Assembly (NCBI GenBank): GCA_944371305.1
Contig: CALVXM010000001.1
Span: 39,600 to 103,599 of the forward strand
DNA: 64,000 bases
Direction of reading: 5' to 3'
Origin: an uncultured Bacilli bacterium
GTDB taxonomy: Bacteria; Bacillota_I; Bacilli_A; RF39; UBA660
Under the pieces are notes generated by a model that worked only from the letters and a program-made list of their open reading frames with translations, was not told the origin of the DNA and did no database searches. Position 1 is the stretch's first letter; every line of letters begins with the position of its first letter. Shown here in pieces: positions 2,394 through 59,218 of this stretch. The position numbers and the translations under genes were made by a program.

Positions 2394-4625
2394 TTATATT
2401 TTATTTGGATTAAAGTCAATTCCCACAATTACTTTACTATTTGAATATTTATCATTTATAAATTGTAAGTAAGGATATATTTTTTTAGTATCTTTGTATT
2501 TAATAATTATATGAAAATGATAAACATTATTTATTTTAGGGATAATAGCTGGGCTAGGTCCTAAAATAATTTCTTCGTCTAAATTTTGTCTTAAATAAGT
2601 TATAATCTTATTACTTTCATTTTCACATTTACTAATATCACTACCACTTATTTTAATTAAACATAAATTGTAAAAAGGAGGATATTTTAAAATTTTTCTC
2701 AAATGCATTTCTTCATTATAAAAGCCGATATAATCATGATTTTTAGCCAAAACTAAACTATAATGATCGGGATTAAAAGCTTGAATAATAACTTCACCTT
2801 TTAACATTCCCCTTCCAGCTCTACCCGATACTTGATTTAATAATTGAAAAGTCCGCTCAGCACTTCTAAAATCTGGAATATTTAAAGAAGCATCACCATT
2901 GATAACACCTACTAAAGTAACATTAGGAAAATCTAATCCTTTTGCAATCATTTGAGTTCCAATTAAAATATTGTATTTTAAATTTTCAAAATCAGTTATT
3001 ATTTTTTTATGAGCTTGTTTAGTTCTAGTAGTATCAACGTCCATTCTAAGTACTTTAGCCATAGGAAATTCTTTGATAACCTCTTCCTCTAACTTTTCAG
3101 TACCCATTCCTCTTTCATTAATATTTTTACTCTTACAAACAGGACAATTATATAATTTATTAGTTTCATAATTACAATAATGACAAACCATTTTTTTATT
3201 TTTTAAATGATAAGTTAAAGGAATATCACAATTAGGACATTTATGTGTAAAGCCACAATCGTTACAAGTAGAAATAGTAGTATAACCTCTTCGATTCAAG
3301 AGTAAAATAATTTGTTCATTATTGTTCAATTTTTCGTTTATTTTTTCTTTTAAAATCTTAGCAAAAATAAAATTTCCATTTTTGATTTCTTTTTTCATAT
3401 CAACCAAAGTAACATTAGGTAAATTTTGATTCACTCTTCGTTTCATTTCTAATAATTCATATACTCCTGCTTTAGCTCTTGTATAACTTTCAACCGATGG
3501 TGTTGCGCTCCCCAAAACAATCGGACATTGATGCCATTTAGCACGATATAATCCAATATCAATCGCATTATACCGTGGATTATTTTCCTGTTTGTAAGTA
3601 CTCGAATGTTCCTCATCGATAATGATTATTCCTAAATTTGAAAGTGGGGCGAAAACAGCACTTCTAGCTCCAATAACTATTTTCACTTCATTTCTTTCAA
3701 TTTTTCGCCACTCATCATATTTTTCACCATTACTTAAATGACTATGTAATATAGCTATATCATTACCGAACCTTTTTTTAAAAGTTTCAACTAATTGTGG
3801 TGTCAAACTAATTTCAGGTACTAAAATCAATGCTTGTTTATTATTTATAACTTTTTGAATTAATTGCATATATACTTCGGTTTTACCAGAACCAGTAACT
3901 CCATGTAATAAATATGGTTTAAATTCATTTAATTTAATTTTAGAAATAACTTGCTTTTGTTCTTCAGTCAAAGATTTACTAGTTTCTTTTTCTAAAACCT
4001 CTTCATTTAGACGATAAACTTCCTTATAATATTTTTCAATTATACCTTTTTTTAATAGTTTATCAATTGTGTATTGTGATGTTTGTTTAGCTTCTTTTAA
4101 AGAAATATCATGATTATCTAATAAATTCATGATAATTTCTTCATTTTCATTAGTAGGACTATAATCTTTAACTTTTCTTAAAAACAAAACTTTTTTCACA
4201 TTTATTTTAAAATTTTTTTTAGCTTTCAAAGCAGTTGGTAACATAGTTTGATAAGCACTAGTTAAGGTACATAAAGTTTTTTTACTAATATATTTTCCTA
4301 GTTCTAGTAACTCTTTATTTAAAACTGGTTTTTCATCAACTAATTCGCTTATTTCCTTCAATTCATAATCACAAGGTTGGTATTTTTTGATATTTATCAC
4401 AAAGCCTTCCAAAGTTTGTTTACCAAATGGCACCAAACAACGACAACCTATTTGAATATTTAAATTTTCTGGAATCAAATAAGAGAATGTTTTATCAATT
4501 TTTTTAATTTCCACTAAGATATCTGCAATCATCATCTCACCAACTTTTATTTTAACATCCAAATATATGTTTGTCAAATAAGAATTCATTATTTCATAAT
4601 TAAAAAAATAGAATTTTAGTAGCAT
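2394..4625 (-). CDS. priA: Primosomal protein N' (replication restart helicase PriA); true start probably an internal Met (MIADILVEI...)
   Basis: Walker A LLHGVTGSGKTEVY, DEEH box IIIDEEHSSTY, Cys4 zinc-binding insert CNDCGFTHKCPNCD...CHYCNYE, 3'-DNA-binding N-terminus. Confidence 0.9.
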   Translation of the reverse strand: MLLKFYFFNYEIMNSYLTNIYLDVKIKVGEMMIADILVEIKKIDKTFSYLIPENLNIQIGCRCLVPFGKQTLEGFVINIKKYQPCDYELKEISELVDEKPVLNKELLELGKYISKKTLCTLTSAYQTMLPTALKAKKNFKINVKKVLFLRKVKDYSPTNENEEIIMNLLDNHDISLKEAKQTSQYTIDKLLKKGIIEKYYKEVYRLNEEVLEKETSKSLTEEQKQVISKIKLNEFKPYLLHGVTGSGKTEVYMQLIQKVINNKQALILVPEISLTPQLVETFKKRFGNDIAILHSHLSNGEKYDEWRKIERNEVKIVIGARSAVFAPLSNLGIIIIDEEHSSTYKQENNPRYNAIDIGLYRAKWHQCPIVLGSATPSVESYTRAKAGVYELLEMKRRVNQNLPNVTLVDMKKEIKNGNFIFAKILKEKINEKLNNNEQIILLLNRRGYTTISTCNDCGFTHKCPNCDIPLTYHLKNKKMVCHYCNYETNKLYNCPVCKSKNINERGMGTEKLEEEVIKEFPMAKVLRMDVDTTRTKQAHKKIITDFENLKYNILIGTQMIAKGLDFPNVTLVGVINGDASLNIPDFRSAERTFQLLNQVSGRAGRGMLKGEVIIQAFNPDHYSLVLAKNHDYIGFYNEEMHLRKILKYPPFYNLCLIKISGSDISKCENESNKIITYLRQNLDEEIILGPSPAIIPKINNVYHFHIIIKYKDTKKIYPYLQFINDKYSNSKVIVGIDFNPNKI

Positions 4626-7869: not shown

Positions 7870-8575
7870 TTATGAAAGAATCGCCCTTGAACTATAATAG
7901 ATAGAATTACTACCGTTGTTATAGAAAAAAGCAAATATTCCACCGCCAGGTCCATTAGCATAATGACTGCTACGAAGAACCCAAGAAGTATTAGAATTTA
8001 AAGAATATGAATGCTCTTCATACCAACCACCAATTATAGTTCCTAAAATTGTTAAAGTTTCTTTAGTCGCATCACCTAATTTACCTCTTGAATGCGTTAA
8101 ATTATTAGTTGCATCATATGTATAACTATCATAATACTTAGTTACTAAAACTTGCACCTGAAGAAAGGAAATTACCATTGGCATTAACCATACTACCCAT
8201 TCCATATTCTTAATCACGTGATAATCGCCATTAATTTTATAATTATTAGCAATATTTTTTATCTAATTTCTCGCTGGTTTAACAAGGATTTAAAACTACA
8301 CCTTAATCTTGATGATAAATGACATTATGCAAGTAATTCTATTTCCAAAAGTTTCAATATTAGCTAAAAATACTTCGTTGATAACTGGTATTTGTCCTTC
8401 AATTTGCTCATTATAATAAGTTTCTCTAATCGCTTTAGCATATCCCTCAATACTTCTTTTATTCGCACTATCGCGTGACTGTTCAATTACATTTAATTAG
8501 TATCGCAATTAAAGCAATAATAGCTAATATGATCATAACTGCTAATAATTCGACTAACGTAAACCTTCTAACCTC
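7870..8575 (-). pseudogene. Degraded prepilin-type N-terminal domain gene (pilin-like family member A): no start codon, Gly(-1) replaced by Arg, at least two frameshifts
   Basis: RC of 8500-8575 reads RRFTLVELLAVMIILAIIALIAIL then stop; the next frame continues EQSRDSANKRSIEGYAKAIRETYYNEQIEG...; ORF 7870-8217 carries the C-terminal part (..SWVLRSSHYANGPGGGIFAFFY) resembling the C-termini of the other paralogues. Confidence 0.6.
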
Positions 8576-10530
8576 TAACTATCTATCCTTTTACCATCCC
8601 TAATCACATATTCCTCTTTAGTCTTAGCATCAAATACATAAGTTGCCTGATTAAATTCAATATTATCAAAATCTTTTAAAATTTTAATATTATTAACTTT
8701 ATTAAAAACTTTATCTAATTTCTCTTCGATTTGTTCTTTCGTAAATGGTTTAGCAATATAATCGATAAAACCTTGTTCAATATATTTTTCTTTTGCTCCA
8801 GAAATAGCGTCAGCCGTTAAAGCTATTACTGGGGTATTAAAGTCTGGTATCTCTTTTAATTTTGCCATTGCTGTTACTCCACTCATATTTGGCATCATAA
8901 TATCCATTAAAATTAAATCATATTGTTGACCACTATTAATTTTATTTAAACATTCAATACCATCATAACATTCATCAATTTCAAATCCAAAACCAGCTAT
9001 AGCCAGTTTAGCTACTTTGATATTTAATTTATTATCGTCGACAATTAATACTTTTTTATGACCATAATTTTTAATAACATTGTTTTTAACAATTATATTT
9101 TCATCCAATGGTTCTTCTAGCTTACTTATTTTTTGAGGTATTTGAACAATAAATAACGATCCTTGTCCAAATTGACTTTGAACATTTATCTTTCCATTCA
9201 TCATTTCAACTAATGATTTAGTAATAGCTAGACCTAAACCGGTTCCTTCAGTAGTAGTATTTCTTTCTACATCCAATCTTTCAAATTTGTTAAATAATTT
9301 ATTTATTAATTCTGCTTTAATTCCTCTTCCTGTATCTTGAACACTAATTATTAAATTGCATAAATCATTTTTATTAATACATCTTACATTTAAATTAATA
9401 CTTCCTTGTTCAGTATATTTGATAGCATTAGACAATAAATTATTGATTATTTGTTTAATATGAATCTTATCACCAATTAATTCATATGGTACATCAGGAG
9501 CAATACTTATTTTAAATTCGATTGGTTTAGTCCCAATTCTTGTTAATGTTACCTTACATAAATTAGTTATTTCTTTTCTAAAATTATAAGGACTATTTTC
9601 TATTTCTATTTTCTCGGCCTCAATTTTATTGATATCTAATATGTTACCTACTATTTCAAGTAATGTTTGACTAGCATTCTGAATATCGATTGAGTCTTCG
9701 ATTACTTCTTTAGGAACACGATCTTTATAATTAGTTATATCAAAAGAAAGTCCGACGATTGCATTTAAAGGGGTTCTGATTTCATGCGACATACTAGATA
9801 AAAAATCTGATTTAGCTCGATTCGCTTTTTCTGCTTGATTTTTAGCTAAAGTCATTTGAGCTAACATCTTTACGTCCGGATTTTCAATTGTAAAATACAT
9901 TGTTACACATATCAAAGTTTCAACATAAGTCATAAGTAAAATTTGTGGATATTTCATCTGAATAGCCATCGCAATGCCTCCGATAGCTAAAAATATAAAT
10001 ACTGGAATATATTTTCTATTTTTTAATTTTTTTATATTAGTTAACAATAAAATTATTATAATAGCTATTAAAACACCTGATATAAAATACGTAAATAAAA
10101 CACTAACGCCAGCTGTATATCGTATGTTAAAATCATCTTTAATAATTATATCTATTGGTAAAACAAATAAAATCAAAGCCATAATAACATAGTAAATAAA
10201 AAATATAATATATCTTTTCTTATCTACTATTAATTCATTTCTTATCACACTAAATATATAATACGCGAATGTCGAAATCCACAAGATTAAATAAAGCAAA
10301 TAAGATTTATAAATTAGTTCACTAATCAAAGGATAATCTTTATAAATGTATGAAGCATAAGTACACAACATCTCGATAATCAATCCAAATAAATTTGAAA
10401 TTATTAAAACTTTAAATATTTTGGTTTCCTTACTATCTACATGTCCTTTAACAAAAAATAAAATTATAATTAAAATACTAAAAGGTATTGCACATAGAGG
10501 AAAATATATTCCACTTCCCATAATCTTCAC
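8575..10530 (-). CDS. Hybrid sensor histidine kinase (polytopic membrane sensor, HisKA, HATPase_c, C-terminal receiver domain)
   Basis: About 6 N-terminal TM helices; H-box [15 protein letters not shown]; G-boxes DTGRGI / GTGLGLAI; receiver LIVDDNKLN...ILMDIMMP. Confidence 0.85.
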
Positions 10531-21783: not shown

Positions 21784-22020
21784 ATCATTTCACCAAGTTT
21801 ATTATATAACAAATAAAAAAAGATTACAATAAAATAGTTTGCTATAACTAATTTAAATATAAAAAAAGATAAATTTTAACTTTATCTTTTTAAGTAAATA
21901 AAATTAATTCTCACCAAAAATATCATCAATAACATTTTCTGGAATATGATAAAATTTTTGATCGAAAATAATATATGGGTGACTTCCCCCAATACTATCT
22001 GTAGGGTCTACCGGTTCTAT

Positions 22021-22410
22021 TCATTCTCCATTAACTTTAAAATTTCCATCACTTTGTAATTCAAATTCATAGTTATTACTCTTTATTTTTAATTTGGTTA
22101 CTTTACCATTTTGATATTTGACTTCTAAGACTTCCGCATTCCCTAAACTCACCATTTTGCTAACATCATCAATGGTTACTCCATCATCATCATTACATAT
22201 ATCTGTACTTTCATCTAATTGATTCTTCATTGCTGATGTCGCACAATAATTATTAATGCCACTTAATATCATACTTGCTTCTGATTTTCCCGCACTCTTT
22301 CTAGCATCTTCAATCACATTTAATATGATTGGGGTTGCTATTAGGGCTATTATAGCTAATATTATTATGACTGCTAATAATTCAATCAATGTAAATCCGC
22401 ATTTCTTCAT
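22021..22410 (-). CDS. Prepilin-type N-terminal cleavage/methylation domain protein (pilin-like family member B, the only intact copy); start at ATG 22410 after a GGAGG Shine-Dalgarno (ORF track extends to a GTG at 22425)
   Basis: MKKCGFTLIELLAVIIILAIIALIATPIIL: class III signal peptide with G(-1) F(+1) E(+5); about 129 aa. Confidence 0.8.
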   Translation of the reverse strand: MKKCGFTLIELLAVIIILAIIALIATPIILNVIEDARKSAGKSEASMILSGINNYCATSAMKNQLDESTDICNDDDGVTIDDVSKMVSLGNAEVLEVKYQNGKVTKLKIKSNNYEFELQSDGNFKVNGE

Positions 22411-29437: not shown

Positions 29438-30507
29438 TTAACCTATTCTAAAAGCCGGAGCAACACCATTAATATCAATAGCATGAGGATCATTCCAATT
29501 GCCATCAAGCATAATACGGTAAAAAGCAGTATTAAGGTGAGCAAAAGCAGAACGTGTCCACCAATAACTTTCAAGTTCTTGATGTCTTTTTATTGCTCCT
29601 TTATAATTACTAGTGCTTACATTATTCATTTCATAATAATCTAATTGTCTTGTATTGTTATCGCTCGTATCATTACTTATAATATTACTTGTTCCATTTT
29701 TACCATAGATTTCTTTCGTAGCTAACAAATATAATTTGTCGTTAGTTATAAAATTTTCTAAATCTCCACTACCATGACTAGATATTACTTTTGTATCTAT
29801 TATTACATTTTTTAAATCTTCCGGTAACGAATTATATATATCATTTTTTAAAAATATATATAGTTCACTTGCAGGATATCCCCCTATATTAGTTAAAGTT
29901 GAATTTATTTTACGTAATGTGATTATATCAACAAATTCAATCACAAATCCACAAGCAGTTTGCGAAAATTCATTATTACTACATTCAGATGGCGTTGTAA
30001 TATTGGCTATTCTTACCGTATATGTACCAGCATATTCTCCAGTTAAAGTTACTTCTTTTGTATCTCCTACTTTATATTTACTCATATCCCCATTTTTTAC
30101 GGCATTAGCTATTGTTTTCCATGAATCATCTTTAAATGATACTGGAGTATGATTTTTACATTCTTCATCATAGCGAAATACATATTGATTATTAATTTCA
30201 TCCCATTTATATAATACACAACCTGTCATTTCTTTATTAGTCACTGGATTTATCGTCTCAATTTCTAAAAAGCCACTACTTTTTAATTCATTTAAAAATA
30301 TCGCATTTTCTTCGGTTGAATATCCTAAACTATTTTGAGTACTATAATTATGAGCTGCTTCTAAAATACTATCAATACTTCTTTCTAATGCTGCTTGCTT
30401 ACTATTTTCGATTGATTTATCGACTATTGGAAAAGTTATTAAAGCTATTATTCCAAGTATTATTATGACTGCTAATAATTCAACTAATGTAAATCCTTTT
30501 TTAACAT
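29438..30507 (-). pseudogene. Prepilin-type N-terminal domain protein (pilin-like family member C, about 355 aa if corrected) interrupted by a 1-nt frameshift in an A6 run at codon 4
   Basis: ATG 30507 gives MLKKDLH-stop; shifting one base after the A6 run (plus-strand T6 at 30497-30502) gives ..KKGFTLVELLAVIIILGIIALITFPIVDKSIENSK... continuous with ORF 29438-30244; perfect promoter TTGCTT-N17-TATAAT upstream. Confidence 0.6.
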
Positions 30508-46925: not shown

Positions 46926-50034
<3,109 letters not shown>

Positions 50035-50602: not shown

Positions 50603-50677
50603 TGGAGCAAGTGAGCGGAATCGAACCGCCGTCCCAGCCTTGGCAAGGCCGTATACTAACCGCTGTACTACACCTGC
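50603..50677 (-). tRNA. tRNA-Gly (anticodon GCC), CCA encoded
   Basis: RC folds as cloverleaf: acceptor gcaggtg/cacttgc, anticodon stem cggcc/ggctg, loop ttGCCaa, T-loop ttcgatt, 3' tCCA; 75 nt. Confidence 0.9.
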
Positions 50678-56689: not shown

Positions 56690-56739
56690 ATCATCACCTC
56701 AATTATATAACATATTATAACATATTTTAGAATAAAAAA

Positions 56740-56915
56740 AAAGTCCAAGAATGCGGGCCCTTAACGATAAAACCTAGTCTCTACCAGGTGGGCATCACAT
56801 CATCAATTTTAGGATTCTCAAAATTAATTGAGCCTTCAACACCATCGATGAATTAGATTCCCAATATTCGTTAATCAGTCGGTTTTTCTAAATGAGCTTA
56901 TCGCTATCCTTAGAC
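56740..56915 (-). ncRNA. Candidate small/structured RNA or tkt 5' leader (about 175 nt, GC-rich island, extended -10 TGgTATAAT at 56922-56930, 3' T9)
   Basis: Local GC far above flanks (gggcccgc, cccacctgg); no ORF; family not identified; no clean terminator hairpin found. Confidence 0.2.
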
Positions 56916-56965
56916 AATTATATTATACCATAAATTATTAAAAATATCATAATTTTAAATATTTT

Positions 56966-57943: not shown

Positions 57944-58927
57944 TTAAAAGGAATATGCACGGACGTCGGTGGTATTCGTCGGGTTGTTGTAGAAGTTGCC
58001 ATAGCCATAGACGCGACGAACGTAAGACGAACTATATCTATTTCCTAACCAAAAATAATCTTTTATATCTAAATATGAATTAGTTCCACCTGCTCTTACA
58101 TATTGATTTTCATCTAATAATCCTACTTTTTTAGTTACTGTTATTTCATCGACATCTGTATATATTCCTACATTAAATGTATTGTCTTTTATATTATTTT
58201 GAATGCTACCATCTAAACTATTATAAAAATATTCATTTAACCAATTATTGATATAACTTGCTTCATATTCTTCTTCTGTTTCCCATACATCATAAGCTGG
58301 ACTAATTGCTGTCAATGGTTGTTGAGATACCAATAATAATGTATTCTCTTCTGTATCAATTTCTACTATTCGCCAATGATGACCCCCATACCATAAATAA
58401 TTATTAGTAACTTCGTCATTTGTACCTTTATAATAATATATATTACTATTTGTTTCATCTTGCACTAATCCTTTGGTTCCAACTTGTTCTAATAATGTTG
58501 ATATTAAATTTGTCTCTGGGTCCTCTGGTAGCTTGACACCACATTCTTCTTCATCAATGGAAAAACTTCCATCACCACATAATGTAAATTTATGAGTATT
58601 ACTATTGACTACTAAATTTGTTACTTTACCATTACTGTATTCTACTTCTAATACTTCGGCATTTCCTAAACTTACCATCTTACTTACTTCTTCAGTTGTT
58701 ACTCCATCGGCACATATATCTTCTGTTCCATTTAATTGATTTTTTACTTTACTAGTAGCACAGTAATTATTAATGCCACTTAATATCATACTTGCTTCTG
58801 ATTTGCCCGCACTCTTTCTTGCATCATCAATGACATTTAAGATAATTGGTGTGGCTATCAAAGCTATTATAGCTAATATTATAATAACTGCTAATAATTC
58901 TATTAACGTAAATCATTTTTTCTTCAT
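57944..58927 (-). pseudogene. Prepilin-type N-terminal domain protein (pilin-like family member D, about 327 aa; N-terminal 120 aa about 85% identical to member B plus a roughly 170 aa C-terminal extension) carrying an in-frame TGA at codon 5, exactly the Gly(-1) position
   Basis: ATG 58927 after a GAGGAG Shine-Dalgarno: ATG AAG AAA AAA TGA TTT ACG TTA ATA GAA TTA TTA = MKKK-stop-FTLIELLAVIIILAIIALIATPIIL...; paralogue B has TGC GGA at the same place. Confidence 0.6.
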
Positions 58928-59092
58928 AAACATTCTCCTCACTTCTATTATGTCTTATCTTTATATTGTCTATTCTATAATTTTATTTTAACTTATATTA
59001 GATTATAAGGCAATTATCTTTTTTAATAATATGTGACATTTTTGATGTGAGGTAATTTTTTTATTTTTAAATTAAACAAATAACAATTTAAT

Positions 59093-59161
59093 CTATAAAG
59101 GTTTTTGCCCCCCCCCATGTGTGCTATTTGCTAATTTGGCTGTTACCTTATTTTCTATCAT
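59093..59161 (-). CDS. Candidate leader peptide ORF (22 codons, MIENKVTAKLANSTHGGGQKPL) containing a G9 (plus-strand C9, 59108-59116) homopolymer
   Basis: Paralogous to 22519-22590; the G9 tract encodes GGG within the ORF. Confidence 0.35.
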   Translation of the reverse strand: MIENKVTAKLANSTHGGGQKPL

Positions 59162-59189: not shown

Positions 59190-59218
59190 ATTATATATTA
59201 TTTATCAATTTAAAACAA
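59190..59218 (-). promoter_or_regulatory. Sigma-70-type promoter TTGTTT-N17-TATAAT driving the leader ORF and pilin-like gene D
   Basis: Exact hexamers, 17-nt spacer; conserved with copy B. Confidence 0.5.

Follow-up and report, generated by a model that had tools for sequence, protein, structure and literature searches.

Homopolymeric phase variation in the coding region of a signal peptide is known from Neisseria pilC, which has a poly-G tract. Type IV pilins and pseudopilins (N_methyl, PF07963) carry a short basic leader that is processed by a prepilin peptidase of the PilD/ComC type. A further group of known proteins comprises the C-type-lectin-like targets of diversity-generating retroelements (DGRs), including those with DUF6273, a DGR target domain in which the variable repeat (VR) lies at the C-terminus (PMC10743442, PMC11792537). 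DGR surveys name ‘G-type pilin’ targets only in passing, as rare items (PMC11661182). Gene D, the subject of the present analysis, is located on the minus strand (57944..58927) of a 64,000-nucleotide stretch of contig CALVXM010000001.1 from an uncultured Bacilli bacterium, referred to here as the window. It belongs to a family that is greatly expanded in Faecisoma-like gut Bacilli/Mycoplasmatota and in which a type IV prepilin leader is joined to C-type-lectin-like DUF6273 modules that are diversified by a DGR. A preliminary description of the window, made from the sequence alone, reported an in-frame TGA at the prepilin Gly(-1) codon of this gene, and offered a recent nonsense pseudogene, stop-codon read-through or recoding, and a sequencing error as explanations. 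Comparison with syntenic loci now indicates that the GGA-to-TGA change is very probably a simple loss-of-function allele, present at high frequency in the species.

A nonsense allele at the Gly(-1) codon of gene D

On the minus strand, gene D begins with ATG AAG AAA AAA TGA TTT ACG TTA ATA GAA TTA TTA (start codon at 58927-58925), encoding MKKK-stop-FTLIELL, and is preceded by a GAGGAG ribosome-binding site (58935..58940), located 7 nt before the ATG and kept in all alleles and in paralog B, as described below. Both the stop codon and the GAGGAG motif are thus as first reported. The conceptual ORF (open reading frame) of 327 codons has its stop at codon 5 (58913..58915), after which the frame stays open for 322 codons up to a TAA at 57946-57944, ending in ...VRAYSF. 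Putting Gly back at codon 5 yields a product with Pfam matches to N_methyl (PF07963, E=1.4e-7) and, partially, to DUF6273, which has the mature N-terminus expected of a pilin (F/M-T-L-I/V-E), with Glu at +5 and a hydrophobic helix of about 20 residues. A homolog search returned thousands of relatives, usually of about 565 aa and with the leader MKK(K)GFTLIELL intact, while the protein cluster nearest to gene D consists mainly of 305-aa gene calls that start at an internal TTG.

The ancestral codon was determined by comparison of the window, at the DNA level, with 11 syntenic loci that share its gene order: alaS, ireB, ruvX, DUF1292, mltG, a methyltransferase gene and an SLT gene on one flank of gene D, and the PP-loop gene and tkt on the other. 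Three of these loci (L002, L083 and L086) read AAA AAA GGA TTT, and so encode the Gly expected at -1, and the other eight read AAA AAA TGA TTT, as does the window, placing TGA in nine of 12 assemblies. Because syntenic orthologs carry GGA, this is the ancestral codon, and TGA arose by one G-to-T change at position 58915, precisely the substitution that had been postulated. The closest comparison is provided by L083, which differs from the window at 1 position in 5,984 bp, namely 58915, while the other strains differ from it at 11-36 positions. Comparison with paralog B had suggested that the stop arose by loss of 3 bp (TGC GGA to TGA), but this origin was dropped, the true orthologs reading AAA AAA GGA. 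Gene D therefore has a sense codon in its orthologs and a stop that abolishes a conserved product in the window, as is characteristic of a nonsense allele. The allele is a common segregating polymorphism of the species and is not private to one strain, so that the description of the event as recent does not hold. An exact-pattern scan of JGI metagenomes for the gene D leader, with either allele, gave 0 hits, and the allele counts consequently rest on ENA/NCBI assemblies only.

The same comparison bears on the suggestion that the T is a sequencing or assembly error and that the real base is G. An A6 run adjoins the site and the sequence was assembled from a metagenome, which would leave room for such an error. 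It is, however, scarcely credible, as the change is a substitution and not a homopolymer indel, and eight further assemblies, which come from separate samples and studies, also have T, with coverage of roughly 5-28x and in several haplotypes. Gene callers also independently gave the 305-aa product as seven distinct protein variants.

The consequences of a true stop are readily predicted. Ribosomes that start at the GAGGAG/ATG site would stop after Met-Lys-Lys-Lys, and no prepilin would be made. The nearest in-frame start after the TGA is the TTG at 58861, from which gene callers annotate the 305-aa ORF, and this annotation could be taken to mean that a restart there, or at another downstream site, gives a leaderless cytoplasmic protein with a new role. 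This is highly improbable, since no Shine-Dalgarno sequence precedes the TTG, the product would start midway in the hydrophobic alpha1 helix, its lectin-like module is an extracellular binding fold, and there is no sign of selection for such a form. Under the preferred reading of a simple nonsense allele, a product from TTG 58861 would lack the hydrophobic alpha1-N segment and would undergo no membrane insertion, processing or assembly.

The preliminary description emphasized that the stop falls on the one residue that prepilin peptidase absolutely requires. This location is a coincidence, as frequent as chance predicts: single-base changes able to create a stop in gene D number 182, and are spread over 128 of its 327 codons. 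Since any early stop inactivates the gene equally, the location at Gly(-1) has no functional meaning for the stop codon.

TGA as a terminator in this genome

The clade is filed under Mycoplasmatota, which makes a test of the genetic code relevant. The window has a GC content of 26% and, under code 11, is tiled by full-length housekeeping genes, including those for transketolase, GltX, RelA/SpoT, PriA, AddA-like helicases and a Mur ligase. TGA ends eight window ORFs of at least 150 codons, four of which overlap the next start as ATGA, and when TGA is taken as sense, the real window genes grow by merely 2-19 codons. TGA is a genuine terminator in this genome, and reassignment under code 4 or code 25 is ruled out by the TGA-ended genes, the ATGA overlaps and the full length of conserved genes under code 11; the earlier exclusion of the Mollicute code was correct.

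Signals for local recoding were likewise sought. No hairpin resembling a selenocysteine insertion sequence (SECIS) was found at the gene D TGA, where the 116 nt around the site fold with z=-0.14 relative to shuffled sequences, in keeping with the first impression that none is obvious. The sequence after codon 5 is identical in the GGA alleles of gene D, and this unchanged downstream sequence, together with the absent hairpin, speaks against selenocysteine recoding. There is no suppressor tRNA in the window, its sole tRNA being tRNA-Gly(GCC) (50603-50677). An Rfam search over the long 5' leader shared by gene D and paralog B found no riboswitch or known RNA, and the Rfam hits in the whole window are a 6S RNA and a tRNA only. 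By inspection, shifts of -1 or +1 on the A6 run of gene D give short out-of-frame peptides, and a rescue by frameshifting was therefore discarded.

In low-GC Gram-positive bacteria, UGA is read at a low level by tRNA-Trp. Such decoding, together with the 322 open codons beyond the UGA and the intact ribosome-binding site and start, would allow the UGA to be read through or recoded (as Sec, Trp, Gly or Cys), with some full-length prepilin being made. This is nonetheless very unlikely. The residue at -1 is Gly in 97 and Ala in 20 of 120 homologs (117/120), and, because the family accepts only Gly or Ala at this position, a precursor with Trp inserted could not be cleaved; in the 54 leader cores that the fetched loci contain, gene D alleles alone have a stop at -1. 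In addition to the lack of a SECIS-like fold, the identity of the GGA alleles downstream leaves no element that has co-evolved with the TGA, the same codon serves as an authentic terminator with ATGA overlaps, and the window provides only tRNA-Gly(GCC). Finally, a GGA/TGA difference inside a near-clonal pair resembles a mutation, not a feature of the code. Thus, of the three explanations first offered, the nonsense pseudogene is favored, while error is opposed by the T shared among nine assemblies, and recoding by the missing SECIS-like element and the identical downstream sequence.

Truncation of gene D and remnants of its DGR

The full-length ortholog in L002 (P0002) is a protein of 567 aa with a pilin-type N-domain and two DUF6273 modules, each of which closes with a GC-rich hypervariable stretch (NRYSSSxVRxV...GVRAVI). 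Gene D has 327 codons, and the distal ~240 codons of this ortholog are absent. The statement that the rest of the gene is intact thus applies to its open frame, but not to its 3' end, and the short form is in effect a pilin leader plus DUF6273 protein with a stop at codon 5. Its VR (about 57956..58033, minus strand) is GC-rich and A-poor, and is identical in all short-form alleles.

The deletion joint (57944..57956, minus strand) is located where the VR (..GTCCGTGCA) continues into the 3' flank of a template repeat (TR; ATTCCTTTTAA). All short-form alleles, including that of the window, contain the joint sequence ...GTCCGTGCA, then T, then ATTCCTTTTAAACTGAG, which yields the ...VRAYSF end followed by a stop, and comparable joints recur elsewhere, as in P0118, which ends in ...VRADSF and a stop. 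About 0.9 kb is gone at the joint of gene D, comprising module 2 and the TR-like element that is still found in L002. There, the orphan, decayed TR-like element (L002 7740-7895) consists of a hairpin, an A-rich repeat and a ATTCCTTTTAAAC flank; the A-rich copy (TCT AGC GTT CGT AAC GTC AAT AAC AAT GGC AAC ...) lies directly 3' of the stop of the L002 ortholog, with the hairpin before it. It is decayed by a 1-nt indel and 14-17 non-adenine mismatches, and no avd or reverse transcriptase gene was found near it. Recombination between VR1 and the TR-like element explains the short form in the window. A search of the window for a TR found none, leaving a single VR copy, and ORFs with reverse-transcriptase motifs were found neither in the window nor at the orthologous locus, L002 included.

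The deletion and the nonsense mutation can be tentatively ordered. The existence of short-form alleles with an intact leader (P0122 and P0127) suggests that the deletion came first and that the nonsense mutation occurred later, on the short form. Gene D would then have been an already decayed copy before the nonsense change, at a locus whose DGR cassette lacks a reverse transcriptase and in which the VR1-to-TR deletion took the second lectin-like module.

Distribution of the alleles

The 1.58-kb locus contains 51 substitution polymorphisms, clustered in two blocks inside gene D (58844-58726 and 58091-58055) that are separated by long invariant stretches. A mosaic of this kind is typical of, and would be expected from, gene conversion among paralogs.

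Several aspects of the distribution weigh against simple loss of function. Each of two pairs of near-identical backgrounds (window/L083 and L084-85/L086) includes both TGA and GGA, and the 58915 allele shows all four gametes with site 58844. The four gametes and two backgrounds imply short-tract recombination, recurrent change at one base, or a chimeric metagenome consensus, as a consensus can be a chimera of co-resident strains. The two-background pattern hints at selection on the site instead of drift, and leaves a modest chance that the OFF allele is selected. In addition, none of the nine TGA alleles has an extra stop or frameshift in the remaining 322 codons, although these open frames have little power because divergence is below 1%.

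Selection would be involved if the TGA were a selectively kept OFF state of a contingency adhesin gene, with GGA (ON) and TGA (OFF) under balancing selection. Loss of an adhesin or antigen would pay in certain hosts, or where phages or the immune system exert pressure; OFF would be favored in most hosts, and the allele would have arisen repeatedly at one nucleotide or been moved by very short recombination tracts. In keeping with this, TGA is the majority allele (9/12 assemblies) and both alleles occur on both near-identical pairs; a poly-G ON/OFF leader switch is built into the family elsewhere, and lesions near the leader recur, for example in gene C (both discussed below). It is nevertheless unlikely, since a point mutation has no intrinsic way back, and the sample is small and non-random, with several assemblies from the same cohorts. 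Chimeric consensus sequences or short conversion tracts can also imitate recurrence, and the prior loss of module 2 and of the DGR fits plain decay. If such selection did operate, it would complement two built-in variation systems, poly-G leader switching and DGR mutagenesis of the lectin tips. A simple loss-of-function allele remains the preferred reading, and the pair formed by the window and L083, one base apart over the ~6 kb compared, provides a natural ON/OFF allele pair for the gene.

The pilin-lectin family and its DGR in related bacteria

The AlphaFold model of P0002 (mean predicted local distance difference test score 85) contains a helix spanning residues 8-66, then a sheet, then two globular modules, and the pilin fold, with a long alpha1 helix on an antiparallel sheet, is recognizable in the model. 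The N-terminus is matched by sequence in solved pilins (PilE1, MshA and PilA; PDB), with F6 as mature residue 1. The variable region is placed on the C-type-lectin-like DUF6273.

A complete DGR cassette adjoins a family member in another species (L078). It includes the target gene (411-2426), which contains VR1 and VR2, a TR (2524-2604) preceded by a hairpin (ACACCTTGCC...GGCAAGGTGTGG) and followed by two small ORFs, and a reverse transcriptase gene (3558-4556; Pfam RVT_1, E=3e-14). Mismatches between TR and VR fall on template adenines in 23 of 25 cases, which is the signature of a DGR. A similar reverse-transcriptase ORF is present in L056 (~12858), found by motif only. Also by motif only, prepilin-peptidase-like (A24-like) ORFs (FGSFYNVVAYRLP...GGGDIKL) were found in L010 (~3399, plus strand), directly upstream of a family member, and in L050 (~3494, plus strand). 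No prepilin peptidase was found in the 64-kb window, and no PilB-type ATPase or assembly machinery in the fetched loci.

These features suggest how a normal family protein would function. The leader would be cleaved by prepilin peptidase after Gly or Ala, releasing a protein with a pilin-fold N-domain and one or two DUF6273 modules, which would be displayed on a type IV-like fiber, and the tips of its DUF6273 modules would be rewritten by DGR adenine mutagenesis.

Poly-G tracts in the leaders and upstream of gene D

Long-leader members of the family carry a tract of G9-G14, located 18 nt upstream of mature FTLIELL (MIKLTNSKTGGGGHLLNNA immediately followed by FTLIELL). Leaders of this type are present in L011, L016, L018 and L020 (all from the metagenome-assembled genome (MAG) BRZ_DM__bin25), in L074 and L081 (BRZ_EG__bin97), and in L049, L054 and L033. 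Tracts of G9 and G12 leave the ATG in frame, those of G11, G13 and G14 shift it out, and ON and OFF copies are found side by side within one MAG. This looks like slipped-strand phase variation, in related species, on top of the DGR-diversified family. Repeat length thus sets the reading frame in long-leader paralogs of other species, but not in gene D, where the OFF state is a substitution and slippage in the A6 run cannot restore the frame.

Upstream of gene D, a small ORF encoding MIENKVTAKLANSTHGGGQKPL (59093..59161, minus strand, closed by a stop codon) is a detached homolog of the long poly-G leaders. It contains a G9 homopolymer (59108..59116, minus strand), the only G/C run of at least 8 in the window. 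The window and L083 have G9, eight strains have G6, and L002 has G5, with which the small ORF becomes 44 aa. A matching upstream ORF without a G run precedes paralog B. A promoter-like element, TTGTTT-17-TATAAT (59190..59218, minus strand), is common to gene D and paralog B; it is predicted from the sequence and lies below the scan threshold.

Other family members and features of the window

All four family members in the window (A, B, C and D) carry lesions. The context of gene D extends beyond the preliminary description through its 3' truncation, its membership in a DGR-target family as opposed to that of a plain pilin, the presence of four lesion-bearing members, and the commonness of the allele. 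A hybrid histidine kinase/response-regulator gene (8575-10530) immediately precedes member A (7870..8575, minus strand), a heavily degraded remnant that lacks a start, has Arg at -1 of its leader core, contains frameshifts and retains a C-terminal fragment of the WVLRSS type.

Member B (21904..22410, minus strand) has an intact leader (MKKCGFTLIELL), ends at a TGA (22023-22021) and is without the DUF6273 module. This TGA aligns with a conserved Cys of the family and is followed by 38 open codons, for which a rough chance estimate in AT-rich sequence is ~0.03. B and D share 80-82% DNA identity over the promoter-like region, the 5' leader and the first ~55 codons. Paralog B may still function as a short pilin, or may be a remnant.

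The ATG and the pilin body of member C (29438..30507, minus strand) are in different frames. The cause is a loss of 25 bp between TAAAAAA repeats of the leader, a deletion specific to this strain; four orthologs encode an intact MLKKNHTDITKKGFTLVELL leader. A chance product of the deletion is an A_AAA_AAG heptamer, and slipping by -1 there would restore MLKKGFTLVELL. Programmed -1 frameshifting at this heptamer was considered as an explanation of the gene structure, and was ruled out by the four orthologs, which reveal the 25-bp deletion in the window. Member C is intact in two samples that carry the gene D TGA, and the lesions in C and D are therefore independent events. Across the family, single copies are often inactivated and appear not to be required.

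Two further features lie outside the family. A 6S RNA (Rfam RF00013, 67 bits; 56738-56919, minus strand) is located between the transketolase and PP-loop ATPase genes. A large serine recombinase (Resolvase and Recombinase domains, 622 aa) overlaps a 418-aa ORF (46926-50031, minus strand), close to tRNA-Gly(GCC) at 50603-50677, and could mark an integrated element.

Significance and comparison with known systems

The gene D TGA is an ordinary nonsense allele, while the family that surrounds it is a less charted combination of known mechanisms. For annotation, gene D should be marked as a pseudogene or a polymorphic loss-of-function allele, and not as evidence of recoding. An uncultured gut lineage with a small, low-GC genome (Faecisoma-like) gives many loci to proteins that combine a prepilin leader with DGR lectin modules, and copies are often lost, by VR x TR deletion, by deletions within the leader and by nonsense mutation. 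The family thus offers a tractable system in which retroelement hypermutation, phase variation and gene decay jointly shape a surface repertoire.

With respect to the genetic code, the resemblance of the locus to code 4 (UGA as Trp, in Mollicutes), code 25 (UGA as Gly, in Gracilibacteria/SR1) or selenocysteine systems is superficial: UGA takes the place of a Gly codon, and the genome, of 26% GC, is affiliated with Mycoplasmatota. Unlike in those systems, UGA here ends genes, breaks no housekeeping gene, is polymorphic with GGA and is accompanied by no SECIS-like fold.

The likeness to type IV pilins and pseudopilins is more extensive. It includes a short basic leader with Gly or Ala at -1, F at +1 and E at +5, an alpha1-N helix of ~20 hydrophobic residues within a predicted long N-terminal helix that precedes a beta-sheet, and prepilin-peptidase-like genes in relatives (detected by motif), one of which adjoins a family member. 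By contrast with these pilins, the family has one or two large C-terminal lectin-like modules, its genes are scattered singletons among housekeeping genes and do not form a pilus operon, no assembly ATPase or platform is present in the sequence examined, and the -1 codon in the window is a stop.

Among DGR targets of the C-type-lectin class (Bordetella phage Mtd, Treponema TvpA and gut-phage DUF6273 proteins), the family differs in being cellular and not phage-borne, in the fusion to a type IV prepilin leader, in having two VRs per protein, and in the many paralogs per genome. The window copy differs further through the loss of its TR and reverse transcriptase, which leaves its VR frozen. The well-studied pilus case, that of Bacteroides, whose type V pili bear DGR-diversified adhesins at the tip (bioRxiv 10.1101/2024.11.15.621889; PDB 4EPS), is unrelated: it concerns another phylum and another pilus system, one relying on lipoprotein-type export and strand exchange, whereas the gene D family uses a type IV prepilin leader.

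Finally, the poly-G leaders resemble Neisseria pilC in that G9-G14 tracts set the frame in related species, with ON and OFF copies coexisting in one genome, and in that strains differ in the length of the tract that precedes gene D (G5, G6 and G9). Gene D itself differs from pilC, as its tract lies apart from the gene, in a small ORF upstream of it, and its OFF state is due to a base substitution, not to slippage.
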